A DNA stretch of 64,000 nucleotides from a virus. Shown here one piece after another: positions 24,385-51,691 of the stretch. Under the pieces are notes generated by a model that was given only the letters and a program-made list of their open reading frames with translations, searched no databases and was not told the DNA's origin. Positions within the stretch are counted from its first letter, which is position 1, and every line of letters starts with the position of its first letter. Where the stretch lies: IMG/VR virus record IMGVR_UViG_3300031851_000014, positions 4,146 to 68,145 of that record; one strand, 5' to 3'. A program made the position numbers and the translations under genes.

Positions 24385-27300
24385 ATGCCTATTAATTTCA
24401 GTAGTGAGAACTACTCTAAAAACGCAGTTGATTTTTATAACTCTGTTCAACAAGAAAAAATGAACGAGATTTTTAAAACACCAAAACTTTCCGATATTAC
24501 GGAACAATACGAACAAAGAGTTAAAAACACTTCCTTTGCACTTCAATATGGAATGGCCGCTGAAGCAGCTTTAGATGAAGAAGAAGCAAAAACGGTATCA
24601 GAAGAATACGACAATATTATGTACAATTCTTTTGCCCCATTTCGGTTAGATCCTAAGGAAGTTAACGAACGTATTGCTAGGGATAATAGAGAATCTTTAA
24701 GAATGATTAAAGTTGCTAACGAAGCGGGAATTGAAAATCTTCGTTTTGAAGGCGGAGAAGAGTTTAAAAAAACGATTCAATATGCTATGGCTTTCCCTTT
24801 AACAGCCCCTAATGTAATGAATAACCGTTTAATTGGATACGTACCTGATAACTTAGGAGGTACTTTCTATGACTTAAGCGAGTCGTGGTCTGAGGCTTCT
24901 TATACAAACGCTATTAATGCACATAAAGTAATGTCTATGTTTGGTCAAGTACCTGAGTCTGTATCACGAGGGGCTAGTATGACAATAGCCGACGATCAGA
25001 CAAAGGGATCTATTAAGATGCTTCTTGATATGATTAAAAAAGAAAACGCAACCTTTGATCCTAGTTACGATGAAAACTTTGTGTTAAGGCAATCAGAAGC
25101 AATGGCTTTAGAAGACAGTGTTTCTTGGAATAAAAACGCCGGATTTTTTGAAGGAGCGGGAAGGTTTCTTGTATCGAGTTTTGATACTTTAGGAGGAGCA
25201 TTTACTAACTTTGGAGATGATGGTCCTGTTTTAGATTTTCTTGGGTATAAAGATAAAATTTGGATGGGGGATAAAGAGACAGAAGGAATTAGAGATCTTC
25301 TTTTAAACGCCATTGAAACATCAGATAACTTGGATCCTAAAATTAAAGATTGGTTATCTAATAACCCCGATGTTCTTGATCTCTTAAAGAACTCATCAAA
25401 CGGTGCTGCTTTTACTGCTGGTTTAAATGAAAAACGTTTTCAATATAAAGCAGCGGTATTAGAACAAGAAACACAAGGTAACAAAACATTTGGAGCTTAC
25501 GCAAAAATCTTTGGTCATGGCTTTATGTTAGATCCTACTTTAGGTCTTGACATTGCTGCTACTATTGGAACAGGTGGTTTAAAAGCAGGTGGTATGATTA
25601 CTAGAGGGGGTCTTAGAGCAACAGGAAGGTTACTTTCTTTAGGTACTTCAAAACAGCTTGCGTCAAGAACTGGTTTATTAACCCGATTAAATAGGCAGTC
25701 TATTGCTGCTCTTACTAGAGAATCTAAATTTTTTAGGTTATCTAATTTTTTAAAAAAAGGTACAGACCAACTTAGTTTGTTACAGAAAGTTATGCCTACT
25801 CAGATTTTATCTGAATTATTAGTACCCCTTAGTAGACGATTACTTACTTCAGGTAAAGACGAGGGTGTTGATTTACTTACTTATTTAAAAGGTAATGACT
25901 ACCTGCCTAAATCGGTAACAGGTAAAGCTATGTACAGAGCTATTGCCGGATCGGTTGAAGGATTAGTTTGGGGAAGAATTGAATATTCTTATGCGGCTGC
26001 TTATGAAGATTCTTTAAATGTTGCTATGTTTGGTCAAGAACAAGCTGATGTTTTATCGTATATGAGAAACCAATCGGGAGCAATGACCCAATCTATGTTA
26101 ATGGGCGGTGTCATGGGCGGTCTTTTAGGACCAGCTATTGGTGGAACGTTTGATGCTGCTGGTGCAAGTGTTACAGGAACAGCTAATCTTATTAATAAGT
26201 GGTCAGAAGTAAGCCCTGATAACTGGCTTAATAAAACAACAGCATTTGCTGAAAAGAACTTTAACGAAAGAATCGCAAAAACATCTTGGTGGAATGTAAC
26301 TAAATCTATTATTAATGTAGCTACAGAAAATAATATGACAGCAGACGCACGACTTAGTGTAAATAAAGCTATTCCTAAAATTGAGTTTGGTCAAACTGAT
26401 GAATCCGCATCTAATAGTGCTAGAACGTTAGAAGAAAAATTATATCAATTATCAGAAAAATCACATAACTCAGGAGCTGTTAATTTTCAAAAAGCCGTTG
26501 ATGAAGTAGTTAATAGTATTCCCGAAGGTGAAACTGTTAGTGCTGAAGCTTTTACTATTAGAGTAGAAAACGCTTTAGTAAATCAAGTCCAAGATAGAGC
26601 AATAAGATTAGGTTTGCGTTATACTCTAGTTACAGGAACTGTTAAAACACTTACTGATTTTGAGAGTGACGCAAAAAGAAATGAACTGACTAACGATGGT
26701 AAGCCAGCAGAACCAGTAACAAAAACTGAAGGTAATGAATTTTCAGTAGAAGCTGAAAGATTAGCTGAAGTAAAGAAAACAAAAGAAACAGAATTAGCAG
26801 CCGAAGAAGAAAAAATTGAAAAATTAAGAGAAGCTTTAGCCGCTAAAAGAGAAGCCAACAAAAATAACCCAGACGAAGCAGATACTGAAGGTGTTGCTAA
26901 ATTAGAAGAAGAAATTAAAGAAGCTTCTACTACTATTGAAAATATGGATAAAGATATTAAAGAAGTAGGACTTCAAGTAGCTCAAGCAGCAGCAAACTAT
27001 GCAGCTACTAATAAAGAAAGCGTTATTACAAACCAAGCAGTTTTTAATAAACTACTTAAAGAAAAACTGTTAGACGATATCAATAAACAAGAAGATATGC
27101 ATCCAATTGCTGCTATGATGCTCTTTGGTATGGATGAAACTTTAGTAAGAAAAATGAAAAACGGAGCTACTCTAGAACAAAAAGCAGTGTTAGATAAACT
27201 ACTTGCTTTAAACCCTGATGATGCTCCATTAGATTCTAATGAGATTGCTTCTCTTAAAGATGTTATTGAAGATAATTTCTTAGAAGAAATCGGCAAAGGA

Positions 27301-30300
27301 GATGAAGTAGTTCCTCATACTTTATTTGATCAATTAATTAAAGAAGGTATTTCAACAGAGTCAGCCTTTAATGAAGCATATAACTTCTCGTTTGAAGAAC
27401 TTGCTGCCGATGACGCTAGAAGAGGACAAGCTATTCTTGTAGACGAAGAAGGTAATTCACTACTTACTAAAGAACAGCAGACATCACTAAATGAAGCTAT
27501 TGCAAAAGTAGCTGCTATTAGAGATAAAATTAATGAGGGTAATGTTGAAGATTTAAACTTTAATAAAGCAGTTCTTAATGAGTTAGCTGAAGCTTTGGGT
27601 ATTGAAAAGCCTAATAAGATTAAAGATAAAACAAAACTTGCTGCTAAAATTAAAGAAGCTTGGGACAATGCAACTCAAGAACAACGAGATGCGTATGACA
27701 ATATTATTATTGATAGAAACTTTACAGATGATATCTTTAAAAGTAAAGCGACTCAAAACATTGAAGCAGTCATTAGAGAAGCCGTTGAAGAACAAGCTGA
27801 TGATTTAGTTACACGAGAACAACAAAAAGCACGAGATGAAAGCGACGAGTATCAGAATACAACAGATGAAATTGACGAAGCTTTAGCACCGTTCAGGGAA
27901 CAGAAAAGAAATGCAGAAACTGCGCCTAATGCAGATAGGGCAAGATCTAATGAAGCAAGTACTAATTTGATATTACTCGGTTTAGTAGAAGCTAATAAAA
28001 TAAACGATATGCGTACACAAAAGTTTATTAATCTTCTATCAGAAGGACAATTTGGAGCAGCTCTTGAAATGCTTGTGGTGCGTGAAAGCGATGATCCACA
28101 GCAAATAAAAAACAATAAGTGGGCTATGGCTATGGAGAAAGGCATTGGAACGTCACTTTCTGTTAAAGAGATGATGGCAAGGGCTAGGGATGGTAAAGAT
28201 CCTAACGCAGCCCAGTATCTTCGGAGTGAACTTCCTAGAGCGTGGAGAGAAAGAGGCGATGGTCTTAAGATTAATACTATCGAAGTAGATGAACAAATTA
28301 AGTCCGCTAGAGACTATTTAGCGGAGAACGGAACAGATCAACAGAAGAAACATTTCGCTGCTTTAGAGAAAAAACAAAAGAGCCAAAGAGAAGCTATTGA
28401 TCGTATTATTGAAAGTAGAAGACAAGATATTATCGATAGAAAAGTTAGGCTTGCTGCTGAACGTGTTATAGCTGAGTCTAGACCAGCTATTGGATTTGTT
28501 AAACCTATCTTAAAAGCATTGCAGTCTATTAACGGCCATATTATTAGAGCTAAGAACAGCCCTAAAAATGTTACCGGTAGTATTGAAACTGAGTTTTCTT
28601 ACGATATTTCAATCAATAAAGAAGAACTTATTGGTGTTCTTAAAGCTAATAACTTATTGGGATTAATGCTACGAATTGATACTGAATCTGGGGCATTAAA
28701 TAAAAAAGTGGATTCTTACGATTCTAAAATTGTTATGAATGCTCTCCAAGATAAATTAGTCTCAGTAGCACCCGCTTTAAGGGATACTTTTATTCCCGGT
28801 TTACAACGAATTTACGATAATATGTATAACAATAAGATTGATGGAACAGGTCTCTATAAAGGAGATGGATCAATACGAAACTTATTAGATTCCATGGAAG
28901 ACGTATTAGATGAAGAAGCAAGTTTCTATACTACACAGTTTAATAATAACGGAGGTAGGTATTACGATAATAATAATGCTTATACTTTAGATGCTGATTC
29001 TTGGGATAGTGATTTTACTAGAGCTATTAATAGATTAGATTTTGGCGATTACTTTAATGATACTCCGTCAATTACCCCAGAACAAAAAGCAGCTCGTGTT
29101 TTAAATGATTTAAATGATAGTTTAGGGAATAGAAAACTTACTCGTCCTAACGAATTAGGATCAACAAGAGCAGCGTTAGGCCCAAAGAGAGCAGCACGAG
29201 CCGTTAGAAGCGCACTGTTAGGGGAAAAGGCTACTACATCTTCTGTGTCTGAAACGTCTCTCGTGGTCACAGGTGGACGCAGAGAGGCAAAGAGAACCTT
29301 GGGTGCTAATAGAGCAACAGGTATTCAAAAAGAAACTGATAGCCAGCTTATTAATATGTTTGATGAGTACGTTGTTCAAAAACGTCAAGGATATTTCTTA
29401 GATGATGATCTTACTGATGAAGACTTAGATGTATTAGAAAATTGGTTAGAGAACTTAAAAGTCAAAGATATTCCAAATAGAGTTAGAGCAGAAAACAGTT
29501 TGTTACCTACCCCTGTTATTAGATCTTTGACTGAAAAACTTCCTCAAAACATTAAAGAACGGGTTGAGCAAAATAAGATTAATATGCTTAGAAGCGATCC
29601 AGCTTTTATGTCTACAGTTCATGATGCTATTTTCCCTATGTTATCTTCTGAGATTAGTACAAGCGGACAACATTTTGCTTGGAACTTCTCAAAACAAGAT
29701 AAAGATGGGAATACTTTTTATCCCTTTAGGGGATTAGGATTTGGTTTCCCTATTGCAGATGCTAGGCCAGATACAATTAATGCTGCCTTAGCTGCTGCTA
29801 CTGAAATTACCTTTAATTACGAAAACTTAATTTCTACTGCTTTTGAAACATGGAAAAGCGGAAAGTGGCGTAGTAAACTTAAGCCAGAAACACGAGAAAA
29901 CGTCCCCGAAGATATGTCATTTGGTGAATTTTTCTTTGGTGGTGAAATTGAAAAGTTATCTGTAGAAGAACAAAAAGCTATTTCAGAAGAGTTGTTCCCT
30001 ACTATTGGAGAATTCGATGCTGATGCTTCTGGTAATAACGTCATGGTTTCAATTGTTAATGGCGTTGAAGGAGCAGGAGCTACTAGAGATTTCTTATCTG
30101 AATTAGTAAAAGAAGTAGATGCGGGTCGATTAGATGAGTTTTTAGAATCTAACTATAAAACATCTTATGAAAGAACTAAAGAAATTGTTCAAAATGATTT
30201 AAACGATCCTACTACTAGAGAAGCAGTTAAAAAGGCAGCTTCCAGAGGAGAGGCTAGTCCTGATCTTGATGAGGCTATTGAAATTTCAGCTAAAATCTTT

Positions 30301-33300
30301 AATTACGCTGATGCAGACGGTAATCCTTTATTAGATCTTAAAGCAATTATGAAAAATCCTAGTATGACCCAGCCTTACGGGGCGGGAGTAGGATCTATGG
30401 CTAAGGCTATTTATGAAAACTTCTTTGTGACATACAGAGATAAACTTATTAGTGATAATGAGATTCCCCTTACTACATCTAACTTTGAACGTATGGCTAG
30501 AACAGCTTCTCAGTTATTAGCAAACGGTTTTCATGAAAGCTCTGCTAAAGAAGGATTATCTTGGGTTAATACTAACTTGTTTGGTAAAGGCTCAAATATG
30601 AATAACGAAAAGCTTAGAACCGTATTAACTAAGTTTAGAAGCGTTAGGAAAAGCCTTACAGGAGCTTCTACTCTTAGAGGATCAGGGGATGCAATTAAAG
30701 ATCCTACTGGTCTTAGAGCAATGGTTGCTGATAACGAATCAAAACAACAGGAACTTAATTCTATTATTGACGGTAATAGACCCATTGAGTTGTCTGAAGC
30801 TGATTCGTTTAATAACCTTCTTCGTCAAATGATGGGTCAGGCTGTTGTTCTTACTGACAACGGATTTGCTAAAAACAACACTGAGTCAGCAAACGGAATT
30901 AGAAAACTTATTATGAATATGGTAAGAGATGCTGAAGGAAATACAGATCTTCAAGATGCCATTAAAAATAAGAATTATCCTGAAGCCCGTAGATTATGGA
31001 AAGATATTACAGATCAAGATGAGATTAATAATATCAAATTATCGTCTTTAAACAGTTATATTCGTCAGGCACATAAATTCGATTTAGAGAAATTTAAATC
31101 ATTGCTTACATCTTTAGGATTAGAAGAAGAGTTTGCTATGCAAATTTTCGATAATTTATCTCCTATGGGTAGAAAAGCATTTGTTCAAAACTTCTTTAGG
31201 GAATTAGCTATTGGTCCTGATCACGGACGTATCTATACTAAAACTACCGAAGGACCAGATTTATTAATTGAAAAGTTAGTGCGTCCTGATGAAACCGCCG
31301 CTTTTTCAATTGCTGGTATGAAGCCAGATAATCTTTCTCGTGATCCTGAGGTGTTTGACGCTGAAATTAGAAGATTGACTTTACTTGACTTGGCTAAAAA
31401 AGCATCTTCTTTTGTTGAAGACGAAGATATGCCTGTTCTTTCTAAAGGTAAGTTTGAGTCTTCTACTCACGGAGGATTTTTAAACGAGTGGAAAAACCAT
31501 AGTGAATTGTCACGTAAATTAAGAAAAAACGCTAAAGATCAAATTAGACGTATTGATAATCTTTTATTTGAAGATATGGATAACGGACAAAAAGAAAAAT
31601 TAGATGTCCTTAGAAAAATGCTGTCTAAAATTGTTGATAGCGGTACTGATGCAAGAGACGGAACTATTGATGATCTTATGGTAGGTATTACTGGAAGTGA
31701 AATGCAACAGCAGGTTAATGCGCTTCCTAGTGCTTTAGGTTATTTACCTAAAACTTTCTTATCTGACTTTAACGATGCTCCTGCTACTATTCTTCGTAAG
31801 GCTCAGTTAGAGCGAACACAAAACGTTAAAACAATGCGATCTTTAGAGAAACAAATTAAAGACAAAAGAGTTACTGTGCAGCAAGATCCTTTCACAATAG
31901 AAGAATTAGCTTATGTTAAAACATTAGATAATATTGATGATATCAAACCTATTGCTTTTAAATCAATGTTACCTACCTCTGTTTTTGATACAGTAGCATT
32001 AAACATTTCAGATTCTCCTTCATTAAGAACAACTAGAGCTGTACTTCAAACAGAATTAGACAACTTTGTAGATAACGTAAAAAACTTAGGAGGAAACAAA
32101 GTATTAGAAGAAGCAGCATCAAAGGGTAAGTATGATGTTGTATTATTACATTACTTTGCTACATTAGCTAATAAAGAAGCTATGAAGACAAGGCAAGACA
32201 TTGCTTTAGCTTCTTCTGCTTTTGAAAAACAAAAAAGAGATTTTGTTGACTCTTTAGAAGAAACAGACCCAGATAAAATTATTAACGCTATTAAAAACAA
32301 TAGATCATTACAAGATATGGAGAAAAAATTAAATCTTCTTATCGAAGCTTCTCTTTTAGAAGAAGAAAGTACATTACGTAGTTTAACGCAATGGGGATTT
32401 GACGCAAAAAGAAATATTACGGATTTATATGATCTTAGGGGAGAATCGGTTGATTCTGTTTTCCCCGGTCAAACCATTGAAGAAGCTATTCAAAATACTA
32501 TTGTTAATAACGATGTTACAGCCGGTAACTTATTAGCGTGGTTGGCTAACGATGCTGAGTTTTTAGGGCAGGTCTTATTAGACGATCCTAATTCTAGATA
32601 TGTAGATAGCTACGGTGGTGATAACCCTGAACGCGCTTTAAATGCTCTTGGTGTTTTCTCTACTGGTGACTCTCCTTCTTTATACTTAAGTGCTTACGCT
32701 CAAAACTACGCTAAGAGGTATACTGTTTCTGCTATTTTAGGTAAATCACAAGATAAAATTACATCAGCAGAAATTCAAGCTTATAGAATTTGGAAAGATG
32801 CTAAGTATAAGTTAGATTCTGAAACTATGGATCGAATTAAAACAGACTTTCCTGAATTAGTAGAAGCATTAGAAAAACCAGAAAATTTAAAAAACATTCT
32901 TACATTAGAAGCAGAAGGACTTAAGCAAGCTACTAAAGCTTTTGATAATACTGCTTTGTTGTCTGAAATTACTAGAAACATTCCTTTAACAGAATCAGTT
33001 GCTGCCGACCTTTTAGAAAGGTATCCTAATATTGAAACAATAATTGGTAAAGTTAGCCCCGATATGACTCTTGAACGATTACTGTCTAGTAAGTCTGAAA
33101 ACTTACTTGGTGGAAAGCATAAAGCTTTAGTCAATCAGTTTGGAGACGTTACAGCTCCTCATAGAATTATCGGTAATGCTAAAATTAAACTAATGGCGGG
33201 TGAAAAATTAAATACTGTAAACTCAATTGGTAGTAAAGATATGATTGACGCTATAAGGTTTACTTCAACTCTTAGTTTAGAGTCTCTTCCTTTTGGAAAA

Positions 33301-36300
33301 AGTTTAGGAGATAACATTACCGGCCATGACCCATTTACTAAATTTGGATCATCTATTAGTAAAACTCGTAGACAAGCCGCAATTCTTAGTGAGGCTATTA
33401 AAGGTTTAGTTAAAGGTAAACCAGAAGCTGAGTTTGTTGTAGACAAACGAAATAGTTTTATTTCAGAAGGTAAAGCAAAACAAGCAGAGTTTGTTACTTA
33501 CAGTAATGCTCAAATTGAAGCTGCTCTTTCATCAGCAGAACAAACTATGGCACAGGGTATTTTAAGAGATTTAAACTTAACTCCGGTAGAATTAGATAAA
33601 ATCTTTAATACAGACGATAACGTAGCTAGAAATAAAAACGATGTTTACAGAGCTGCTAGACTTGTCCCGTTTTTATCTGAAAATAGCTCTGAATATAATA
33701 TCTTTAAAAAACAACAAGCCATTAAAGACAGTTTAAAAGGAAAACGAGCTGTTAATGATTTAGATGCGTTTAACGATTTTAAAGATAATGTTCTTCCTAT
33801 TTTAACAGAAATTAAAAAAGCTATTCAAACTAAAAAACAAAATGCAATTAAAAACGATCCAGATTTTAAAAGCAATGATATTAACAGTGTTGATCTTGTT
33901 GATGATTGGTTTACTAGTACTATTAGAAGTGCCGATATAGCTGATGATAACAACACTCCTGTTGTTAACGGTAATCAAGTGTATGACAGTCAATCTGTTG
34001 AATCTGCAAAAGTAGGAGCGGTAGCTAAAGCAGAACAAACTTCTCTTTTAGATAGAACAGACGGCAGTGAAGCTATGAAGGGAGTTAATACGGTAGACTT
34101 TGCGTTTAGCGATAAACAGTTTATTGATAATGGTCCCGAACACCTTAGATTTATTGAAGCTATTAACCCTCTTGTAACAAGAGGCGTTTTAACTAACGAT
34201 GATAAATTACTTCTTAAGATTGTTTTTAATGATAGGTCTAACAATACAATGTTAAAGCAGTTGTTTGATGAAGATGATTCTGTTACTATGGTAGCTAACG
34301 ACGCTAATGTCAGTTTATCAGATACAAGTGCAGCAACACTTAGAACAAGAATTGAAGTAGCTAACAATTTAGCTAAACAATTTGATAAAATCGGTAAGTT
34401 AGGTGCTGCTGGGGTTGTACTAGAAGAGTTAGGCCACGCTATTGGTAAACGAATGAGTAAAGACGGAATGCAATCGTTTATCATTAGAGCAAAGCAGTTA
34501 TTAAAAGATGAAGACGGTTTTAATGCTTTTATAGCTCTTGAAAAAGAATTATTTGGTGCTGAAACTAGAGTAGATTATAGTAACAGAGTTGAACACATTC
34601 GTAAATTTATTGATGAAGAAGACATTAAAGCGGTACGTAGTAATGAAACTTTTGGTATTTTATTCGCTATTACTTCTATTTTAGGGAAAGATACACGAGC
34701 TTTACTTAATGAGGATACTGATATACTTGCTAAATTGTATAGTGATTCTAATCATTATATTTCTCGTTTGCGTTCTTATTATAGTGTAGCCGAATCTTCT
34801 CCTGTAAGTATTGATGATCTTACTCACCCTATGAATATTGAGGCTAATTTACATAAAGTTGTTTATAATAATCCAGACGAGATTTCAAGCGAGATGATTG
34901 GAGGTGACCCTCGTCCAGATTTTAAACCCAACCATTTATATAATAGAGCCACAGAAGTAGGAACACTTCCAGAACAAAGAGAAGCATATTTAGATGAAAA
35001 CATTAAAGCTGCTACTATAGCAGATGGTAGGTTTAATCCTAATTTATTAGATAATAATACACAAAATAAATTAAGAGCTGTCACAAAACATTTAGATAGT
35101 TTCGTTAAAGATGCTAGTAAAGGCACTCTTATTGATAGTCCTATGTTTACTCTAATGGCTAATGCTTCTATGGGATTAATGTCAAGACAAACTGTTGAAA
35201 AACTTATGCTTAATTTAGCGCAGCCATTTGGGGCAAGACGATTTGCGTTTTTAGCTAACAATAAAGATGGGCAGTCTGGTATTTCTTTACTGTTATTAGG
35301 AATGGTCGATACAAAAAATCTTGTGTCTACATCATCTTTTAATACCGCTCTTCCTACTATGCAAGGACTTCAAGTTCATTTAGATGGTGTTTTTGAACCT
35401 CTTATGAAACCTTTGTTAGATCTTAAAAGAATTAACTCTACTAGAGGTATGACAGGCGTTGCTTCTTATCAAGCCTTTACAGGACTCTTTTGGAAAATGG
35501 TTATGAACAGAGACGGCGATTCAGGAGCAATTACAGGATGGGCCGGTAAAACTAAAGCTAAACAAATCGGTATTGCTGAATTAGATAAAATCTATAAAAA
35601 AGCAAACGAAGAACTTCCTTTTGATCCAGAAACAGGCAAAATTACTGATCCTGAATTAGATCATACATTAGATATCTTAGTTGAAACCGCAAGAGCTTGG
35701 GCTGATCCTAAAGATGGTGTATATCAACAAATTTTAACGGCTCAAGTTGATAACGGTAGGTTTGATTCTACCTTTGCAGCGGAAGCTATTATGAGTGGTG
35801 TTGTCCCTATTAAATTTGCTGATGAATTATTTACAAGAGGTGAAATGGCTAATAATCCTGATCTAAGAGAAACATTTAGAAAAGCCTTTGCTGATCATTT
35901 ATACAGCACAATGACAGACAGAAACAATAAATTTATCCACGAAGATTTATTTTCTTTAGTTTTTGCTGATAGGCTAGAAGGAGATATTGATGCTCCTACT
36001 CGTATTACCGGAATGGATTTAGCTAGTGGTGTTTACCAGAAGTATTTAGACGAAGCTTCAACACCCGCTGATGCGTGGGCTAACTTTACAAATGATATAA
36101 AACAAGGTAAACTGAGCAAATATGATTTATTAAGCGGAGAAGAGTTACAATATTTTTACGAGTCGATTAACCAAGAAAATATTACCGTATCAGAAAAACA
36201 GAATAAAATGATGAATAATATCGAAAATAGGCTTGATAGTAAGACACCTAGATCTGGTAAAAAATCATCTTCTAGTGCTAACAAAGAAAGACTTATTGAG

Positions 36301-38370
36301 TTTGTAGCAGAAGAGTATGCTTTAACATCTGGTTCTTCTGCCTATAGTTTCATAAACGATAGGTTTGTAGATAACGCTAGACTTTTAGATGATCCTAACA
36401 TTGAGAGGTTTCTTAATGTTGACCCGCTTGAAGTTTTTGATGCTGTCAAACGAGGTCAAGCAGGACAAGCCTTTGATAGGCAAATTGTTGGTAATGCTTT
36501 AGGTATGCAAGGATTTGGCGTAGGTGATTTAATTAGATTACTTCGATACGCTAATGAAGACTCTACTTTTAAACCTGAACATGTTATTGTAAACTCTAAT
36601 TTACAGGGTTATGAAAAGAGAACTTTAGGTAAAACAGAGCAACAAAAATATTCTAAAGTTTTAGAGTATTTAGAAGATGCCTACCATATGGCTATGGGTA
36701 ATTTGTCTTACGATAAGACAGATAAAAGTTCTATTGGTTTTATTAGTATGCTTACTACTATTGCTGACGCTGGTACAGCTTTAAGTGTTGGCCCTCGTTT
36801 AGGCATGGCGGCATTACTTGAAGAAACCCCTATGGCTATTATCGGTGAACTTAAATCATCCTTAGATTCTATTAGACAAGAAGGGCGTGAATCTATTGGC
36901 TTCTTTAAAAACTTAGGAAACAGAGAAGCTCTTCAACAGTGGATCCAAGGAATGGGACATATTACCAGAGATTTACAACGAGAGTCTAGTACTCTTATGT
37001 TAAAGATGGGTATCGACCCTAAGCAAATTAGTCAAAACAGAGCAGACAAAGCTGTCCAACGAATGTATAAAGTTTCATCTACAGGATTAGATTATCAAAC
37101 AGCCATTAACCGCGCCCGTGGTGTTAGGAAATGGATTAATGAATTAAACTCTATGTTTGTAAATGAGGCTAATGCAGATATTTCATTTACTCATTCGGAT
37201 GGTCATACTGTTTCTGTTTCTTCTCGAAACCTTAAAAGTAACGCATCCTTTGATACGGTTTACGAAGTTGTGCAAGGAATGGGAGATCTTACTCGTTATA
37301 CATCTACTGAAATTAAAGATAATTTAAAACAACTTAAACTTTCTGCTGAAACATTAGATGCTGTTATTGACATGATGAGAAATGGTTTATTCTCAGAAGA
37401 GTTAGCTCCTATCTTTAAAAAACTTTGGTTAGAAAACTACAATACCATAATTAAACAAGGAATCCCATTTGAAGAAATGATGAAAACAATTAACTTTGAT
37501 TATAATTCTTCAGCTAAAGAAAGAGCGCAAACATCTCAGGTTATCATGGCTCTTAGAGAAATTGCCTTTAATGCGTCAACCAGATACGCTAAACAGCCTA
37601 CTCTTTCAGAGAATGCTGCTTTAGGTTCTAGAAGACTTGGTGCTTTCTCTAGGTTAGTTACTCAATTAACAAACTATGCCTCATCTGTGTTTGGGTCATT
37701 GAGAAAAGCGCAAACTGTAAGCCCAGCGTTATTTGCCTCAGCTTTCTTAGGTCACGCTATATCGGGATACATGTATTATAAGTTAGTTCAAATGCAAAAC
37801 TCTAAGACTTTTGAAGAAATTCTAAAAGAATGGGAAAAAGACCCTATGTCAGAAATTAGAGATGCCCTAATGTCAGTTCCTTTCTTTGGTATGAATCAAA
37901 TGCCTATTGTGGCTCTTACACAGGTGTTGCGAGGAGAAAGACCTCAAAACACCCAGATATTTAACTTTGCTTCGTTGGCTATGATTAATAAGATTCTTCA
38001 GTTACCCGCTAAAACAATGAAAAGCGTTGGTGATATTCAAGAGGGTAATATCTCACGCGGCGCAGCTAACATGTCATCTACTGTTCCCTTACCGTTTATG
38101 CCTATTGTGTCACTCGGGTTAAGGTCTTGGGATACTAAGATGCCTTTGTTTGGATTTAAAGATAATTCTAAGAAAATACAAAGACCTAAAAATCCTCCAA
38201 AGATTACTAAGTCTACGCCTGCTACAACTTCTGCAACGGAACCAAATGTAGATGCAATGAGACAGCGTAAACCTGAGACGACACCACGTCAGGAATTAGA
38301 CAGTCTTAATACGACTCCTGAGAGTCTAACAGAAGCTCTTAATCAAAGGTTTATACCAAAGCCATATTAA
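24385..38370 (+). CDS. Giant ejection protein (gp16 position, 4661 aa) with an embedded single-subunit RNA polymerase-like domain (putative virion RNAP)
   Basis: Motif A-like GEFDADASGNN (30007-30039); motif B-like KAIMKNPSMTQPYG (30340-30381); Gly-rich membrane-active N-terminal segments; no Cys seen. Confidence 0.7.
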   Translation: MPINFSSENYSKNAVDFYNSVQQEKMNEIFKTPKLSDITEQYEQRVKNTSFALQYGMAAEAALDEEEAKTVSEEYDNIMYNSFAPFRLDPKEVNERIARDNRESLRMIKVANEAGIENLRFEGGEEFKKTIQYAMAFPLTAPNVMNNRLIGYVPDNLGGTFYDLSESWSEASYTNAINAHKVMSMFGQVPESVSRGASMTIADDQTKGSIKMLLDMIKKENATFDPSYDENFVLRQSEAMALEDSVSWNKNAGFFEGAGRFLVSSFDTLGGAFTNFGDDGPVLDFLGYKDKIWMGDKETEGIRDLLLNAIETSDNLDPKIKDWLSNNPDVLDLLKNSSNGAAFTAGLNEKRFQYKAAVLEQETQGNKTFGAYAKIFGHGFMLDPTLGLDIAATIGTGGLKAGGMITRGGLRATGRLLSLGTSKQLASRTGLLTRLNRQSIAALTRESKFFRLSNFLKKGTDQLSLLQKVMPTQILSELLVPLSRRLLTSGKDEGVDLLTYLKGNDYLPKSVTGKAMYRAIAGSVEGLVWGRIEYSYAAAYEDSLNVAMFGQEQADVLSYMRNQSGAMTQSMLMGGVMGGLLGPAIGGTFDAAGASVTGTANLINKWSEVSPDNWLNKTTAFAEKNFNERIAKTSWWNVTKSIINVATENNMTADARLSVNKAIPKIEFGQTDESASNSARTLEEKLYQLSEKSHNSGAVNFQKAVDEVVNSIPEGETVSAEAFTIRVENALVNQVQDRAIRLGLRYTLVTGTVKTLTDFESDAKRNELTNDGKPAEPVTKTEGNEFSVEAERLAEVKKTKETELAAEEEKIEKLREALAAKREANKNNPDEADTEGVAKLEEEIKEASTTIENMDKDIKEVGLQVAQAAANYAATNKESVITNQAVFNKLLKEKLLDDINKQEDMHPIAAMMLFGMDETLVRKMKNGATLEQKAVLDKLLALNPDDAPLDSNEIASLKDVIEDNFLEEIGKGDEVVPHTLFDQLIKEGISTESAFNEAYNFSFEELAADDARRGQAILVDEEGNSLLTKEQQTSLNEAIAKVAAIRDKINEGNVEDLNFNKAVLNELAEALGIEKPNKIKDKTKLAAKIKEAWDNATQEQRDAYDNIIIDRNFTDDIFKSKATQNIEAVIREAVEEQADDLVTREQQKARDESDEYQNTTDEIDEALAPFREQKRNAETAPNADRARSNEASTNLILLGLVEANKINDMRTQKFINLLSEGQFGAALEMLVVRESDDPQQIKNNKWAMAMEKGIGTSLSVKEMMARARDGKDPNAAQYLRSELPRAWRERGDGLKINTIEVDEQIKSARDYLAENGTDQQKKHFAALEKKQKSQREAIDRIIESRRQDIIDRKVRLAAERVIAESRPAIGFVKPILKALQSINGHIIRAKNSPKNVTGSIETEFSYDISINKEELIGVLKANNLLGLMLRIDTESGALNKKVDSYDSKIVMNALQDKLVSVAPALRDTFIPGLQRIYDNMYNNKIDGTGLYKGDGSIRNLLDSMEDVLDEEASFYTTQFNNNGGRYYDNNNAYTLDADSWDSDFTRAINRLDFGDYFNDTPSITPEQKAARVLNDLNDSLGNRKLTRPNELGSTRAALGPKRAARAVRSALLGEKATTSSVSETSLVVTGGRREAKRTLGANRATGIQKETDSQLINMFDEYVVQKRQGYFLDDDLTDEDLDVLENWLENLKVKDIPNRVRAENSLLPTPVIRSLTEKLPQNIKERVEQNKINMLRSDPAFMSTVHDAIFPMLSSEISTSGQHFAWNFSKQDKDGNTFYPFRGLGFGFPIADARPDTINAALAAATEITFNYENLISTAFETWKSGKWRSKLKPETRENVPEDMSFGEFFFGGEIEKLSVEEQKAISEELFPTIGEFDADASGNNVMVSIVNGVEGAGATRDFLSELVKEVDAGRLDEFLESNYKTSYERTKEIVQNDLNDPTTREAVKKAASRGEASPDLDEAIEISAKIFNYADADGNPLLDLKAIMKNPSMTQPYGAGVGSMAKAIYENFFVTYRDKLISDNEIPLTTSNFERMARTASQLLANGFHESSAKEGLSWVNTNLFGKGSNMNNEKLRTVLTKFRSVRKSLTGASTLRGSGDAIKDPTGLRAMVADNESKQQELNSIIDGNRPIELSEADSFNNLLRQMMGQAVVLTDNGFAKNNTESANGIRKLIMNMVRDAEGNTDLQDAIKNKNYPEARRLWKDITDQDEINNIKLSSLNSYIRQAHKFDLEKFKSLLTSLGLEEEFAMQIFDNLSPMGRKAFVQNFFRELAIGPDHGRIYTKTTEGPDLLIEKLVRPDETAAFSIAGMKPDNLSRDPEVFDAEIRRLTLLDLAKKASSFVEDEDMPVLSKGKFESSTHGGFLNEWKNHSELSRKLRKNAKDQIRRIDNLLFEDMDNGQKEKLDVLRKMLSKIVDSGTDARDGTIDDLMVGITGSEMQQQVNALPSALGYLPKTFLSDFNDAPATILRKAQLERTQNVKTMRSLEKQIKDKRVTVQQDPFTIEELAYVKTLDNIDDIKPIAFKSMLPTSVFDTVALNISDSPSLRTTRAVLQTELDNFVDNVKNLGGNKVLEEAASKGKYDVVLLHYFATLANKEAMKTRQDIALASSAFEKQKRDFVDSLEETDPDKIINAIKNNRSLQDMEKKLNLLIEASLLEEESTLRSLTQWGFDAKRNITDLYDLRGESVDSVFPGQTIEEAIQNTIVNNDVTAGNLLAWLANDAEFLGQVLLDDPNSRYVDSYGGDNPERALNALGVFSTGDSPSLYLSAYAQNYAKRYTVSAILGKSQDKITSAEIQAYRIWKDAKYKLDSETMDRIKTDFPELVEALEKPENLKNILTLEAEGLKQATKAFDNTALLSEITRNIPLTESVAADLLERYPNIETIIGKVSPDMTLERLLSSKSENLLGGKHKALVNQFGDVTAPHRIIGNAKIKLMAGEKLNTVNSIGSKDMIDAIRFTSTLSLESLPFGKSLGDNITGHDPFTKFGSSISKTRRQAAILSEAIKGLVKGKPEAEFVVDKRNSFISEGKAKQAEFVTYSNAQIEAALSSAEQTMAQGILRDLNLTPVELDKIFNTDDNVARNKNDVYRAARLVPFLSENSSEYNIFKKQQAIKDSLKGKRAVNDLDAFNDFKDNVLPILTEIKKAIQTKKQNAIKNDPDFKSNDINSVDLVDDWFTSTIRSADIADDNNTPVVNGNQVYDSQSVESAKVGAVAKAEQTSLLDRTDGSEAMKGVNTVDFAFSDKQFIDNGPEHLRFIEAINPLVTRGVLTNDDKLLLKIVFNDRSNNTMLKQLFDEDDSVTMVANDANVSLSDTSAATLRTRIEVANNLAKQFDKIGKLGAAGVVLEELGHAIGKRMSKDGMQSFIIRAKQLLKDEDGFNAFIALEKELFGAETRVDYSNRVEHIRKFIDEEDIKAVRSNETFGILFAITSILGKDTRALLNEDTDILAKLYSDSNHYISRLRSYYSVAESSPVSIDDLTHPMNIEANLHKVVYNNPDEISSEMIGGDPRPDFKPNHLYNRATEVGTLPEQREAYLDENIKAATIADGRFNPNLLDNNTQNKLRAVTKHLDSFVKDASKGTLIDSPMFTLMANASMGLMSRQTVEKLMLNLAQPFGARRFAFLANNKDGQSGISLLLLGMVDTKNLVSTSSFNTALPTMQGLQVHLDGVFEPLMKPLLDLKRINSTRGMTGVASYQAFTGLFWKMVMNRDGDSGAITGWAGKTKAKQIGIAELDKIYKKANEELPFDPETGKITDPELDHTLDILVETARAWADPKDGVYQQILTAQVDNGRFDSTFAAEAIMSGVVPIKFADELFTRGEMANNPDLRETFRKAFADHLYSTMTDRNNKFIHEDLFSLVFADRLEGDIDAPTRITGMDLASGVYQKYLDEASTPADAWANFTNDIKQGKLSKYDLLSGEELQYFYESINQENITVSEKQNKMMNNIENRLDSKTPRSGKKSSSSANKERLIEFVAEEYALTSGSSAYSFINDRFVDNARLLDDPNIERFLNVDPLEVFDAVKRGQAGQAFDRQIVGNALGMQGFGVGDLIRLLRYANEDSTFKPEHVIVNSNLQGYEKRTLGKTEQQKYSKVLEYLEDAYHMAMGNLSYDKTDKSSIGFISMLTTIADAGTALSVGPRLGMAALLEETPMAIIGELKSSLDSIRQEGRESIGFFKNLGNREALQQWIQGMGHITRDLQRESSTLMLKMGIDPKQISQNRADKAVQRMYKVSSTGLDYQTAINRARGVRKWINELNSMFVNEANADISFTHSDGHTVSVSSRNLKSNASFDTVYEVVQGMGDLTRYTSTEIKDNLKQLKLSAETLDAVIDMMRNGLFSEELAPIFKKLWLENYNTIIKQGIPFEEMMKTINFDYNSSAKERAQTSQVIMALREIAFNASTRYAKQPTLSENAALGSRRLGAFSRLVTQLTNYASSVFGSLRKAQTVSPALFASAFLGHAISGYMYYKLVQMQNSKTFEEILKEWEKDPMSEIRDALMSVPFFGMNQMPIVALTQVLRGERPQNTQIFNFASLAMINKILQLPAKTMKSVGDIQEGNISRGAANMSSTVPLPFMPIVSLGLRSWDTKMPLFGFKDNSKKIQRPKNPPKITKSTPATTSATEPNVDAMRQRKPETTPRQELDSLNTTPESLTEALNQRFIPKPY

Positions 38371-38390
38371 AAAACCCACAGTATAACAAA
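38368..38390 (+). promoter_or_regulatory. Repeated promoter-like motif, copy 1 (TAAAAAACCCACAGTATAAC)
   Basis: Recurs at 43639, 52344 and 58832. Confidence 0.55.
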
Positions 38391-38397: not shown

Positions 38398-38429
38398 GGG
38401 AGTCTATAGATTTCTTTCTATAGACTCCC
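38398..38429 (+). other. Perfect 13-bp inverted repeat
   Basis: GGGAGTCTATAGA-TTTCTT-TCTATAGACTCCC, followed by an AT-rich tract. Confidence 0.65.
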
Positions 38430-38527
38430 TCTATTATACCTATATATTATATAACTAAGTACCCCTATTGATTACCGGGGGGATTACTCAAAGTTCACTG
38501 CGGCTATGCCGCTCTTTGGAGTCTGAC

Positions 38528-39760: not shown

Positions 39761-39793
39761 CTTCCACTATCACGTGTCTCGAAAGGACATACA

Positions 39794-40141: not shown

Positions 40142-40280
40142 TTTCAGAAAGGAGATCAAGGATGATCTCAGACACGGATGTCACTTTCACTCTGTTTTAC
40201 TTTTGGTTTCATTGGATCACGCATCGTGCGTGGCTCTAATGTGCCTTCCACTATCATCCCCAATGGGAAAGGTTTTTACT

Positions 40281-40832: not shown

Positions 40833-41120
40833 TATGACGGACCTCCCCCAAGAGTTCCGCTCAAGACCCCTCAAGACCACCCGCACCAAGACCCCTTGCG
40901 GCTGTTCCACTATCATCCTCCTTGGGAAGGTCTCGCACAATCCCCCGTGGGAAGGCCAAGCCGTAGGATCCTCCCTAAGACCCCCGACCATCAAGTGGGG
41001 TCTCGGGTCATCTTTATCATTCAAAGCCCTCAGGCGGCCTCTCCGGGCCTCTGTAGGGATTCTTGGGACTGCCTTGCGTAAGGTGGCCCCTGCTTATTTC
41101 TTTCCGAAAGGTTATCTCCA

Positions 41121-43063: not shown

Positions 43064-43130
43064 TTACCTGAGGTCTGCCAATGTGGCGGGCCTCTGTTTA
43101 TTTCCATGCCCTAAGGGCAGAAAGACTATT

Positions 43131-43638: not shown

Positions 43639-43660
43639 TAAAAAACCCACGTTATAATAA
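43639..43660 (+). promoter_or_regulatory. Repeated promoter-like motif, copy 2 (TAAAAAACCCACGTTATAAT)
   Basis: Intergenic, upstream of an AAGGAG RBS; flanked by the inverted repeat GGAAAGTAG/CTACTTTCC. Confidence 0.65.
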
Positions 43661-44402: not shown

Positions 44403-44623
44403 TGGTAAAGATTGAATACCGTGGACAGTTAATGGAAGACATGCAGTTCCATTCATATGAAGAAGAACTGTCGGAGCGTCACAAGCAAGACATCCGACAC
44501 CACATCGAACAGCACTACCCCAATGAGTTAGATCATGTTCGTATCCTTCACCGTCTTGAAGATATATCCTCAGAAATTATGGGAGAACCCGATGAGTTTG
44601 TTTCTAGTACCAATGAAGATTGA
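44402..44623 (+). CDS. Small hypothetical protein
   Basis: TAATG overlap; MVKIEY... Confidence 0.55.
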   Translation: MVKIEYRGQLMEDMQFHSYEEELSERHKQDIRHHIEQHYPNELDHVRILHRLEDISSEIMGEPDEFVSSTNED

Positions 44624-46706: not shown

Positions 46707-46779
46707 GCCCTCGTAGCTCAGTTGGTAGAGCATTCGGCTTTTAACCGATCGGTCGCAGGTTCAAGTCCTGCCGAGGGCA
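46707..46779 (+). tRNA. tRNA-Lys (UUU), CCA not encoded
   Basis: Acceptor stem GCCCTCG/CGAGGGC, D-arm GCTC/GAGC, anticodon loop CTTTTAA, T-arm GCAGG-TTCAAGT-CCTGC. Confidence 0.93.
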
Positions 46780-46796: not shown

Positions 46797-47330
46797 ATGA
46801 ACGATTATAACTTAGAAGATGAATTAATTAAAGTACATGGTAAGTTAGCACAAAGAAACAATGCTAGTTCTAATACTATTATTAACTCAGCACAGTTAGG
46901 TAAAGATTTTTTTACTGCTGTTGCTTCAGCTCTACTTACACTAGGAGAAACACATGGACCTCTTACACAAACATCAAATTTGTTTTCACATCCTAATCCA
47001 GTTGACTATGTTTTAAGTCTACTCGATAATAACTTTCTTATACCGGGTTGGGGTAGTAGCTTTGTTAAAGGTGAGGAAGACCCTGCGTTTGATACCATTA
47101 AAAATATTTTACAGGAGAAACATGAAGATGTATACAAAGTAATTGGAGATGTAACAGCGGCACTTCATCTAGAAGGAAAGAAATTATTTCCTAATGCTGC
47201 TTGTTATACTATAGCTAGTATGTTTGCGTTAGATCTTGACCCAAGAATATCCTTTAAACTATTTATTACTAGTAGGATTGATTGGTGGCATCATGTGTAC
47301 ATGTGTTACTATCGTCCCGGCCCTATTTAA
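46797..47330 (+). CDS. Minimal citrate synthase / citryl-CoA lyase-fold protein (degenerate active site)
   Basis: NASS, AVASALLTLGETHGP, IPGWGSSFVKGEEDP, LFPNAACY, LFITSR...W follow the citrate synthase motif order. Confidence 0.65.
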   Translation: MNDYNLEDELIKVHGKLAQRNNASSNTIINSAQLGKDFFTAVASALLTLGETHGPLTQTSNLFSHPNPVDYVLSLLDNNFLIPGWGSSFVKGEEDPAFDTIKNILQEKHEDVYKVIGDVTAALHLEGKKLFPNAACYTIASMFALDLDPRISFKLFITSRIDWWHHVYMCYYRPGPI

Positions 47331-47680: not shown

Positions 47681-47765
47681 GGCTCTGTGGCGGAATTGGC
47701 AGACGCAACGGACTTAAAATCCGTCGAGGGTAAACCTCATGGGGGTTCGAGTCCCCCCGGAGCTA
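47681..47765 (+). tRNA. tRNA-Leu (UAA), long variable arm, CCA not encoded
   Basis: Acceptor stem GGCTCTG/CGGAGCT, anticodon arm ACGGA-CTTAAAA-TCCGT, variable arm GAGG..CCTC, T-arm GGGGG-TTCGAGT-CCCCC. Confidence 0.92.
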
Positions 47766-50578: not shown

Positions 50579-50609
50579 TTGGTTAAAAGATATTGTAGAC
50601 TCTGGTACA

Positions 50610-50888
50610 ATGGTACGTATTGATTGGGTCGATGCTCAGACCTCAGGTGGACCCGGGTGGGTTGACGCTGAAGACATGCAGCAGTGGGCCTACGATAAAT
50701 GTGTATTTGTTACTACTATAGGTTTTGTTTTAAATGAAGGAGATAACGCTATATCACTAACAGATGCCATCCAGCATGACGGATCAGCAGGAGGAGCAGT
50801 ACATACTATCCCTAAAGAAATGATTAGAACTGTACACGAACTTGGTATTATTATGGAGACAGAAGATGATGACAATTCCACCACATGA
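50610..50888 (+). CDS. Conserved small phage protein (V.I.W.DA....GW family)
   Basis: MVRIDWVDAQTSGGPGW...TTIGFV...IPKEMI; start uncertain. Confidence 0.6.
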   Translation: MVRIDWVDAQTSGGPGWVDAEDMQQWAYDKCVFVTTIGFVLNEGDNAISLTDAIQHDGSAGGAVHTIPKEMIRTVHELGIIMETEDDDNSTT

Positions 50889-51135
50889 TGTTATGATACT
50901 TGGTGAGAAAGATATGGAAGATGTTTTGGATATGATTGAAGACAATCTTAAGGACAACGAGAAGTCTACATTTAATATCTACCTCCCATCTATTAAATGG
51001 GTAAACATTATTCTTGATAATGTAAACACCATTGGAGAAAAAGTACTCGACCCTGAAAACGTAAACAGTGATCTTTTAACTATTGAATTTATTATCGAAG
51101 GAGTTGAATATGACGACGAGCCAGACTACGGGTGA
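50866..51135 (+). CDS. Small acidic hypothetical protein
   Basis: GGAG RBS; fills the gap. Confidence 0.55.
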   Translation: MMTIPPHDVMILGEKDMEDVLDMIEDNLKDNEKSTFNIYLPSIKWVNIILDNVNTIGEKVLDPENVNSDLLTIEFIIEGVEYDDEPDYG

Positions 51136-51691
51136 TCTTGATCCTTTCAACGAAGAGGACTTCATTACTTGTATTACTATTGTTGTACGTACTATCAGGC
51201 GTAAAGGCCGGTGGTCTAACTGGGAAGAAGAAGAGTGCATTAGTGAAGGGTACATCTATGCTCTTCGCATTCGTGAGCTTTGGAATCCTGAAGCAGGTCC
51301 ATTTATGAAGTACTTGTTTTCTACTTTACCTTTTAGAATATCTGATGCTATGCGTACTGGTATGGGTCATAAAAGAAACCAAAGAAAAAACCGTGCTACT
51401 AATGCTCGTTTTATTAGTAAAGAGTTTCAAGTAACGAGTAACGAAGAGTACGATGCAATTGTAAATCTTCCGGCAAAAGAAGAAAAGTTACATGACCACG
51501 ACTGGGAAGATAACTTTGATTGGTTTGCTTTGACGCCTAAAGAAATTGAATGTGTTAATATGAGAGCAAGAGGAATACCACAAAAAGAAATTGGTTACTC
51601 CCTTGGTGTATGCGAGTCTAGAGTATGTCAGATTCTTAAACAAGTAAAAAACAAATGGTCACACCATGACCCGGAGAACAACAATGAGTAA
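51110..51691 (+). CDS. Sigma-70 family (FliA/WhiG/ECF-like) sigma factor
   Basis: Region 2-like ECISEGYIYAL...WNPEAGPFMKY....FRISDAMR; region 4 HTH LTPKE...KEIGYSLGVCESRVCQI. Confidence 0.75.
   Translation: MTTSQTTGDLDPFNEEDFITCITIVVRTIRRKGRWSNWEEEECISEGYIYALRIRELWNPEAGPFMKYLFSTLPFRISDAMRTGMGHKRNQRKNRATNARFISKEFQVTSNEEYDAIVNLPAKEEKLHDHDWEDNFDWFALTPKEIECVNMRARGIPQKEIGYSLGVCESRVCQILKQVKNKWSHHDPENNNE

Follow-up and report, generated by a model that had tools for sequence, protein, structure and literature searches.

Candidate components of a stepwise transcription programme in an uncultured marine T7-like podophage

How is transcription ordered in a phage that appears to carry, on a T7-like genome, a giant candidate injected polymerase, a T7-type RNA polymerase (RNAP) and a sigma factor of its own? 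The question is raised by IMG/VR virus record IMGVR_UViG_3300031851_000014, of which we analysed bases 4146-68145 of 68,145 bp (64,000 nt, hereafter the window). The record is 99% complete by CheckV estimate; its source is an uncultured marine T7-like podophage, and the window covers most of the 68-kb genome. An initial annotation, made from the sequence alone, had placed three transcription-specificity genes here and had proposed from them a hybrid cascade of virion RNAP, T7-type RNAP and phage sigma factor. All three open reading frames (ORFs) exist on the + strand at the positions collected in Table 1. Our comparisons relate the core of the giant protein to the virion RNAP (vRNAP) of phage N4, and we give a little better than an even chance to an order in which an injected polymerase acts before the T7-type RNAP, which is followed in turn by the host polymerase with the phage sigma factor.

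The giant protein and the N4 virion polymerase

A HMMER search with residues 1330-2520 of the 4661-aa protein against 1.84 billion representatives returned seven proteins (7 clusters at 50% identity), six of them large (1636-4707 aa, 26-59% identity) and one a 227-aa fragment (E 1.6e-4). The window piece was aligned with the six large homologues, and this seven-sequence alignment, whose members are 24-59% identical, is the giant family referred to below. Its invariant columns form three blocks, [FLMV]DAD[AS]SGxN[IV], KxxxKxxxMTxxY and [IVM][IV]DS, the second of which has exactly the spacing of R627, K631 and Y639 in T7 RNAP. None of the motif A residues (D-A-D-x-S-G-x-N) or of the motif B residues (K, K, M, T, Y) varies among the seven members in spite of the low overall identity, which argues for selection on an active site.

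For comparison with N4 we used a profile of 14 Schitoviridae vRNAP sequences, the first row being the N4 mini-vRNAP region, and ran hhalign locally. The giant family matched this profile with a score of 62, a probability of 84% and E 7.7e-6. The match is as strong as a true N4-T7 control, in which the N4 family was compared with a nine-sequence T7 family (E 6.8e-6) and in which the known catalytic residues fell into their proper pairs, T420-R424 with D421-R425, D559 with D537, R666 with R627, K670 with K631 and Y678 with Y639. Negative controls (4 reversed and 20 column-shuffled alignments) gave best scores of 14.8-28.7 and E 0.061-0.94, and none of the 24 came near 62. The match held with other match-column settings (E 7.3e-5), after removal of the window sequence and its closest relative (E 2.1e-4) and when only distant Schitoviridae were kept (E 5.9e-5). 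Compared with the T7 family, the giant family gave E 1.2e-3, exactly on motif B; one of the seven members (P0006) reached E 3.4e-4 and 20.0 bits with Pfam RNA_pol over the same stretch (cut-off 22), and the window piece gave E 0.042 with phrog_414. The nearest named ESM clusters were the RNA_pol and N4 vRNAP domains (0.75-0.77), which by the calibration of the tool is no more than a lead. As far as sequence comparison can tell, a remote but significant relationship links the core of the giant protein with that of N4 vRNAP. Within it, K1986, K1990 and Y1998 align with N4 R666, K670 and Y678 and with T7 R627, K631 and Y639, and D1880 is probably the counterpart of N4 D559 and T7 D537, a pairing that needs a shift of one residue, as hhalign places D559 opposite A1881.

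A number of results weigh against reading the protein as a working polymerase. Pfam returned nothing but GST_C_3 noise (E 0.026), no PHROG family matched at E <= 0.01, phmmer found no sequence match in the PDB, the core piece had no NCBIfam match, and a scan of the window's genome with PF00940 detected the T7-type RNAP only. The giant profile did not match the single N4 sequence (probability 0.4%). The T/DxxGR motif is absent at the expected place, where an extended low-confidence alignment puts ERVEQ opposite N4 TRVGR, and no alignment puts D2418, the candidate motif C residue, at N4 D951. With T/DxxGR absent and motif C unplaced, the core could be a degenerate and inactive polymerase relic. 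The AlphaFold2 (AF2) model of residues 1330-2520, made from the seven sequences, was poor (predicted local distance difference test, pLDDT, 46); a Foldseek search with it returned unrelated proteins at the top and nothing at E <= 0.001, and the fold search was set aside as meaningless.

Other searches complete the description of the family. Neither the Pfam N4 vRNAP domain nor the vRNAP PHROG was found in the giant protein, and its first 1000 aa had no tblastn match in 50,697 phage records. The flanks on the N- and C-terminal sides of the motif A-B core showed no significant match to N4 (E 0.4 and 0.67), and no GR is invariant across the seven sequences at the T/DxxGR place. The same low-confidence alignment contains a third collinear block, ML..DP.....VHDAIFP against N4 ML..NP.....VREAILP. 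Syntaxin, matched by the family profile in the PDB at E 0.028, was rejected as coiled-coil noise. Of the three transcription genes named initially, two are recognised directly, the RNAP by Pfam and PHROGs and the sigma factor by TIGR02937, whereas the giant gene is reached only by profile-profile comparison. Like a vRNAP, the protein is giant, lacks cysteine, has motifs A and B and is encoded at the corresponding place in the gene order. Agreement is lacking or uncertain for T/DxxGR, for motif C, for recognition by family models and for a companion heterodimeric RNAPII. We therefore consider it distantly related to the N4 vRNAP core, and not a Schitoviridae vRNAP.

Absence of cysteine is a trait of the whole gene trio. 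No cysteine occurs among the 4661 residues, in any of the six large homologues or in the 215- and 1408-aa proteins, while the remaining proteome has 1.66% cysteine. Passages of PMC3821669 describe N4 vRNAP as cysteine-free and tie this to its passage through the tail and the periplasm. In N4, gp52, gp51 and gp50 are consecutive, and the trio of the window shares the small-medium-giant order with the giant gene last; N4 vRNAP is expelled together with two other ejection proteins, according to the abstract of PMC13434306. On these features the 4661-aa protein is probably injected with the DNA.

We also observed that identity drops sharply at the border of the terminase and ejection genes when 17283-38370 is compared with two relatives (L003, L004). 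The large terminase subunit (TerL) is 88-91% identical, the 1408-aa protein 27-32% and the giant protein 28-41%; the RNAP in contigs that share a name prefix with these two is 85-93% identical. From these identities the ejection module looks hypervariable or exchanged.

The T7-type polymerase, the sigma factor and their relatives

The second gene encodes a T7-type RNAP that is recognised without difficulty by Pfam RNA_pol (PF00940; 2.2e-73, 248 bits with a cut-off of 22, and 241.5 bits in the genome scan) and by phrog_414 (2.3e-148, positions 3-815 of 816 covered). In an alignment with T7 and seven other enzymes, DFRGR, LDGTCNGIQH, RNLPKRTVMCDPYG and IHDSFG fall on T7 421-425, 537, 627-639 and 812, and the specificity loop is present with a 2-residue insertion relative to T7. 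The protein is one 848-aa frame without stops, N-terminal and specificity-loop parts included, and is unsplit, unlike N4 RNAPII. The claim of an intact T7-type enzyme is thereby borne out, as is its position: thyX and both tRNA genes separate the RNAP gene from the left-end non-coding region (about 38.37-38.53 kb), a distance of about 9.6 kb, where about 9 kb had been stated. The closest matches are Autographiviridae isolates at only about 26% identity, and the enzyme has 17 cysteines. A 149-aa ORF (50439-50888) without a family match lies between the RNAP and sigma genes and overlaps the 3' end of the former; it is kept in seven of seven RNAP loci at 46-87% identity and could be a polymerase or sigma accessory.

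The third gene codes for a sigma70-family protein. A longer frame opens upstream, but the ATG at 51110 is preceded by a GAAGGAG ribosome site, so that the coordinates given in the initial annotation are right. The longer frame matched NCBIfam TIGR02937 (sigma70-ECF superfamily, where ECF stands for extracytoplasmic function) over residues 36-191 with 45.4 bits (cut-off 42.9); phrog_351 'sigma factor' was matched at 3.9e-9. Pfam Sigma70_r4 alone scored 21.3, under its cut-off of 24.1, while a precomputed PF04545 match exists for four of five homologues. A profile of eight members of the lineage matched WhiG (7lq4) at E 1.4e-6, separately in region 2 (39-82) and in region 4 (140-183); it also matched FliA, as well as SigH (3mzy) across 39-193, and the region 4 part matched LuxR/NarL helix-turn-helix domains too. 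The AF2 model has a pLDDT of 71.9, and all 50 PDB matches listed by Foldseek come from sigma-factor entries (best E 1.4e-3, probability 1.00; none at E <= 0.001). A tblastn search of the 50,697 phage records gave no match, and among 5.8 billion proteins the homologues form 6 clusters only, all of this lineage. On this sequence evidence, 51110-51691 encodes a genuine two-domain sigma70-family protein.

The survey of related contigs for co-occurrence of the three genes, which the initial annotation had suggested, bore out their association. A relative of the giant protein occurs in six viral contigs. All three genes are present in both complete relatives, G005 (G5, 72.9 kb) and G006 (G6, 71.6 kb), each 100% complete, with the RNAP at 69-71% and the sigma factor at 28-31% identity. 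The four others are fragments (30-82% complete) that end a few kb past the giant gene and contain neither RNAP nor sigma; three of the four share record-name prefixes with separate short contigs bearing both. The order RNAP, 149-aa ORF, metallophosphoesterase, single-stranded DNA-binding protein (SSB) is found in seven of seven RNAP loci, and the sigma gene lies between the 149-aa ORF and the phosphoesterase in six of the seven (four by tblastn, two by HMMER in the complete records); in L026, searched by tblastn, it was not found.

Promoter-like motifs and the proposed programme

Two repeated motifs offer candidate promoters. Since both patterns were derived from this sequence, independent support comes from their conservation at the same places in relatives, and in G5 and G6 both are kept in place although the giant proteins are only 24-26% identical to that of the window. 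Motif 2, AAAACCCAYNNTATAAYAA (forms also written AAAACCCAYNNTATAA, AAAAACCCAYNNTATA and AAAAACCCACAGTATAAC), has three exact copies (a-c) where 0.00 are expected, and a fourth, degenerate copy (d). Copy (a) is kept after the giant gene in six of six covering loci (G5, G6, L002, L003, L004, L005), copies (b) and (c) in G5, G6 and L022, with one of them in L023, and the place of (d) in G5 at 1953 and in G6rc at 9207. A hairpin follows each copy. Copy (b) also stands in the loop of an inverted repeat (43616-43680) with a compensatory change, GGAAAGTAG...CTACTTTCC in the window and ATGTAGC...GCTACAT in G5 and G6.

Motif 1, TTCCACTATCA, has four exact copies against 0.07 expected, a number reached in none of 100 shuffles. 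With two mismatches allowed, 23 copies stand against 22.65 expected, which is chance, and only exact or one-mismatch copies are therefore meaningful. Three exact copies precede successive left-end genes, 9-14 nt ahead of a GAAAGGA ribosome site, and near-copies lie inside an ORF at 40419 and 40550. The left-end blocks of relatives contain the intergenic 11-mer four times in G5, three times in G6, twice in L004 and once in L003; these are the intergenic copies of a 13-site alignment that leaves out further ones, such as a third in L004. The 13 aligned non-redundant sites share a single 12-nt block without an upstream second block and show no conserved stem position. At two of the three intergenic window sites a hairpin with a terminator-like T-rich tail lies 12-13 nt upstream. 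A related element before the first left-end gene reads CACTATAGAT in G5 and G6, CCTATAGAT in L003 and CCTATTGAT in the window. All these left-end candidates are single-block and resemble T7-group initiation regions. A general repeat search found no promoter-like family. The two motifs had initially been described as confined to different regions: both proved non-random and conserved, and the confinement stands for motif 1 but not for motif 2, which occurs at four module boundaries. The fourth motif 1 copy, within the ribonucleotide reductase ORF, recurs without change in G5, G6 and L022, where codons around it differ synonymously; either an internal promoter preceding the virion genes or coding conservation alone could account for this.

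Which enzyme reads which motif can be approached through the specificity loop. When TATA is set at -4..-1 as in T7, positions -17..-13 of motif 2 are A-rich and positions -12..-8 read ACCCA. In the RNAP, the counterpart of T7 N748 is Asp and that of R756 is Arg, and the loop is identical in the window, G5, G6 and L023; CC at -11/-10 and C at -9 of motif 2 fit these residues. In T3, Asp at the 748 position goes with C at -11/-10. The pairing of 748D/758A with ACCCA is listed in Table 2 of PMC11880802. Placed likewise, motif 1 has T at -9 and -10, a poorer fit to Arg and Asp. From the fit of the loop, motif 2 is most likely the promoter of the T7-type RNAP, and motif 1, by its position, its single-block form and elimination, is the candidate promoter of the injected polymerase. 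We infer these pairings from specificity-loop rules and position.

Codon use bears on timing. For each block of genes we tabulated the AAA share of Lys codons, the TTA share of Leu codons and GC at third positions, AAA and UUA being the codons read by the two phage tRNAs. The three values are 0.32, 0.06 and 0.52 in the left-end genes, 0.44, 0.21 and 0.38 in the middle block (tRNA, RNAP and sigma genes), 0.41, 0.17 and 0.43 in the replication genes, 0.67, 0.47 and 0.28 in the structural genes and 0.82, 0.57 and 0.21 in the ejection genes. The left-end genes would thus be translatable before phage tRNAs exist, while the late genes lean on them, and the gradient supports the left-end block as the earliest class.

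The programme we propose would begin with the 4661-aa protein, which would share the virion with the 215- and 1408-aa proteins and be ejected along with the DNA. Its N4/T7-type core would transcribe the GC-rich left-end genes from the single-block motif 1 and from the related CTAT(A/T)GAT element before the first gene. Because its own presumed promoter and a terminator-like site both precede the RNAP gene, first expression of that gene needs read-through or a host promoter; either of these would yield the first T7-type RNAP. That enzyme would then use the motif 2 promoters at four module boundaries: the thyX-tRNA-RNAP-sigma block, the replication block, the block of ejection-protein and giant genes, and the genome end. 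Finally, the sigma factor made in this second step would redirect the host core RNAP, most likely to the virion genes. Packaging and ejection, catalytic activity, enzyme-motif pairing and the targets of sigma are all parts of this scheme that we infer.

Several results tell against the scheme. No host promoter for first expression of the RNAP was identified with confidence. Neither 7-mer enrichment upstream of genes nor motif alignment gave a third, sigma-type bipartite promoter class, and a scan for sigma70-like promoters in 38-53 kb returned 29 matches against 29.7 expected, the chance level. The motif 1 copy in the reductase ORF lies just before the virion genes and would suit a late promoter too. 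Of the hybrid cascade first proposed, then, the components hold up and the codon and tRNA gradient fits the order, while the sigma promoter class, T/DxxGR and a placed motif C did not emerge. The absence of T/DxxGR from its expected place and of an alignable motif C would fit a giant that is a DNA-ejection protein in the gp16 position and nothing else, its polymerase core an inactive relic; the early genes would then be read by the host or the T7-type RNAP in a two-tier programme of T7-type RNAP and sigma. The lack of a direct family match and the unusable fold model agree with this, and the absence of cysteine and the gene position would fit any ejected protein. We nevertheless regard such a relic as unlikely, in view of motif A and B residues invariant in all seven members, of sigma70-type matches at chance level in 38-53 kb and of left-end promoters that are single-block like T7-group initiation regions.

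The pairing of enzymes with motifs could also be different. Motif 1 might belong to the T7-type RNAP or to the host RNAP carrying the phage sigma, or one enzyme might serve both motifs. The reductase copy, just ahead of the virion genes and kept by the window as well as by all three relatives covering the place, speaks for this, as do the missing sigma promoter class, the invariance of motif 1 where the vRNAP cores have diverged (24-26% identity), and the sequence itself, CACTAT being also the core of T7/SP6-group promoters. Yet motif 1 has no second block, though the helix-turn-helix of sigma region 4 should read a -35 element; the sigma gene belongs to the middle block, whereas motif 1 is concentrated in the block whose codon use is most host-like; and T at -9/-10 misfits Arg and Asp where motif 2 fits. 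We hold a different assignment to be improbable, to about the same degree as a relic core. Less probable still is that the motifs are not promoters at all but RNA-processing sites, terminator-associated sequences or packaging or replication signals, as might be suggested by the hairpins with T-rich tails ahead of two of the three intergenic motif 1 copies, by the conserved inverted repeat around motif 2 (b) and by the position of motif 2 (a) at the probable genome end. The short distance from motif 1 to the ribosome sites of successive genes stands against this, as does the three-part T7-group layout of motif 2 ahead of gene modules. Transcription by the injected polymerase, the T7-type RNAP and the host enzyme with the phage sigma, in that order, remains the reading we prefer.

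The features on which this account draws are listed in Table 1. All large ORFs of the window lie on the + strand, and the layout is T7-like by PHROG and Pfam scans. After thyX come a DUF932 protein, tRNA-Lys, a citrate-synthase-like ORF and tRNA-Leu, then the RNA polymerase, the sigma-like gene and a metallophosphoesterase. These are followed by gp2.5-like SSB, RusA, primase/helicase, DNA polymerase, kinase, exonuclease and ribonucleotide reductase. A portal-like gene is next and, past the break of the record, capsid, tail-tube and fibre genes, a 2221-aa protein and the large terminase; the final ORFs of the genome order code for 163, 215, 1408 and 4661 aa. An Rfam scan returned two tRNAs and nothing else. 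The best TerL matches among the 50,697 phage records are Autographiviridae (36-42% identity).

Table 1. Positions of the genes, motifs and structural elements in the window
Feature	Position	Strand	Remark
Motif 2 (d), AAACCCCAGTGTATAACAT	19200..19218	+	3 mismatches; inside 163-aa ORF after large terminase, about 270 nt before trio
215-aa cysteine-free protein	19467..20114	+	first of putative ejection trio; no PHROG match
1408-aa cysteine-free protein	20147..24373	+	second of trio; no PHROG match
4661-aa cysteine-free protein	24385..38370	+	candidate injected virion RNAP
Core stretch, residues 1843-2021	29911..30447	+	N4 mini-vRNAP 526-701, motif A to B (hhalign)
Motif A-like DADASGNN	30016..30039	+	D, A, D, S, G, N invariant 7/7
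Motif B-like KAIMKNPSMTQPYG	30340..30381	+	hhalign
IVDS, tentative motif C	31630..31641	+	D2418 is the only invariant acidic residue past motif B
Motif 2 (a)	38371..38389	+	directly past giant gene's stop codon
13-bp stem-loop, GGGAGTCTATAGA-TTTCTT-TCTATAGACTCCC	38398..38429	+	compensatory variant in L003
Conserved left-end element, TAAGTACCCCTATTGATTACCGGGGGGATTA	38456..38486	+	related to motif 1
GC-rich block of small genes	38.5-43.5 kb		left end
Motif 1	39762..39772	+	GAAAGGA ribosome site and ATG follow
Motif 1	40246..40256	+	
Motif 1	40905..40915	+	
Terminator-like hairpin and T-run	43070..43094	+	closes left-end gene block
Motif 2 (b)	43642..43660	+	ahead of thyX-tRNA-RNAP-sigma block
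thyX	44535-45269	+	Pfam Thy1 2.7e-39
tRNA-Lys (UUU)	46707..46779	+	
tRNA-Leu (UAA)	47681..47765	+	
Intact single-chain T7-type RNAP, 848 aa	48032..50578	+	Pfam, PHROGs, motif alignment
Sigma70-family protein, 193 aa	51110..51691	+	regions 2 and 4; longer frame opens at 51083
Motif 2 (c)	52346..52364	+	ahead of gp2.5-like SSB and replication module
Motif 1 in ribonucleotide reductase ORF	60347..60357	+	codes S-T-I-I; kept in G5, G6, L022

The public runs that contain the sequence are labelled marine, seawater or estuary metagenomes, and the three examined have contigs at least 99% identical to it. No terminal repeat was found in the 68,145-bp record; public DNA contigs span both 38.4 kb and 43.1-43.7 kb, and an end pile-up is not among the contigs listed. 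A metatranscriptome (X21) has contigs 90-95% identical over parts of 38.5-45.4 kb, where DNA carry-over is possible. A contig 90-95% identical to the first left-end ORF (38529-39064), in that RNA-library run, has a depth of 159.7, the highest among the contigs of 38.5-43.5 kb. By eye, that ORF has a signal-peptide-like start and a D-x-N-x-D-rich end resembling a dockerin or calcium-binding repeat.

Further observations concern other parts of the genome. Just outside the window, a 146-nt non-coding leader before the capsid gene (G000:C1:511-656) is near-identical in the window genome, G5 and G6; it contains a TTGACT-like box and a hairpin with compensating substitutions (GTTAAA/TTTAAC against GTTGAA/TTCAAC), and is a candidate late promoter or leader. 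The 2221-aa protein (5355-12020), between the tail fibre and small lysine-rich ORFs, has no PHROG match and 91 cysteines (4.1%), in sharp contrast to the cysteine-free ejection proteins. Between the structural genes and the terminase (13090-17290) are several tiny ORFs that are rich in lysine and have repeated AAAAAGAAAAAG stretches, and collagen-like G-x-x repeats (GGTGCTGCTGGAGCTGCTGGC...) occur at 4791-4882 in a 702-aa tail-fibre-like protein. The citrate-synthase-like ORF between the tRNA genes (46797-47330, 177 aa) corresponds to the C-terminal part of the enzyme only (Pfam Citrate_synt 7.6e-9, profile 183-337 of 357).

Comparison with known transcription systems

In the open-access full texts searched, no phage was described that combines a sigma factor with both a virion RNAP and an intact T7-type RNAP. 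The stepwise programme that this T7-like phage probably runs is so far known only from the unrelated phage N4. The N4 scheme is treated as the hallmark of one family, tied to a split RNAPII, and the same logic would here run on a T7-type chassis; the case links two textbook podophage transcription strategies and bears on the origin of virion polymerases. It would also offer two compact orthogonal promoter/polymerase pairs and a sigma factor from one 68-kb genome. Since the giant family is unannotated and invisible to current family models, such phages are being taken for ordinary T7-like viruses that happen to have a large 'internal virion protein'. More tentatively, and with less than even confidence, we suggest that three, possibly four, RNAP forms could act in sequence, that the giant enzyme may be a sister or forerunner of N4 vRNAP, that the ejection machine might have arisen when a single-subunit RNAP was inserted into the gp16-position protein of a T7-like ancestor, and that Schitoviridae would in that case have come to pair it with a split RNAPII only later, as a speciality of their own.

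Passages of PMC4496689 and the abstract of PMC13434306 describe the N4 cascade as virion RNAP gp50, then RNAPII (gp15 and gp16), then host sigma70 RNAP activated by the N4 SSB, and the former states that vRNAP-bearing species, two excepted, have a heterodimeric RNAP. The window shares with N4 a giant cysteine-free protein with a central T7-family core and a genome of about 70 kb and, in the proposed programme, a second phage RNAP of the T7 family and a final step on host RNAP. The differences are equally plain. The giant protein has 3500 aa in N4 and 4661 aa in the window; the second RNAP of N4 is a truncated heterodimer, that of the window one 848-aa chain with a specificity loop; and the host step depends on an SSB activator in N4 but would depend on a phage sigma here. 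In the window the candidate early promoters show no regular association with a hairpin, all genes lie on one strand, and the terminase and replication genes are T7-like.

T7 and the Autographiviridae use host RNAP early and a phage single-subunit RNAP for the remainder. The window resembles them in its single-chain RNAP with all motifs, in the promoter layout (A-rich, specificity, TATA), in the gene order RNAP, gp2.5-like SSB, primase/helicase, DNA polymerase, exonuclease, portal, capsid and tail tube, and in having a terminator downstream of the capsid gene; the presumed phage promoter at the genome end is reminiscent of phiOR and phiOL of T7. Of the features that define Autographiviridae, the window has its own single-subunit RNAP, genes on one strand and T7-like replication and packaging genes, but at 68-73 kb these genomes exceed the family's size (about 37-45 kb, with core proteins the size of gp14-16), the giant gene alone taking up 14 kb. 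The window further differs from T7 in a last ejection protein of 4661 aa with a polymerase core, in ejection genes that follow the terminase, in an encoded sigma factor and in only four copies of the presumed phage-RNAP promoter.

ECF-like sigma factors are themselves encoded by other phages, phiEco32 gp36 and Salmonella phage 7-11 gp47 being examples. Those phages have no RNAP of their own, whereas the sigma gene of the window lies beside a T7-type RNAP gene. The likeness is in the protein: the abstract of PMC4331800 describes a small two-domain (regions 2 and 4) podophage sigma that redirects host RNAP, the part that the sigma factor of the window would take in the last step of the proposed programme.

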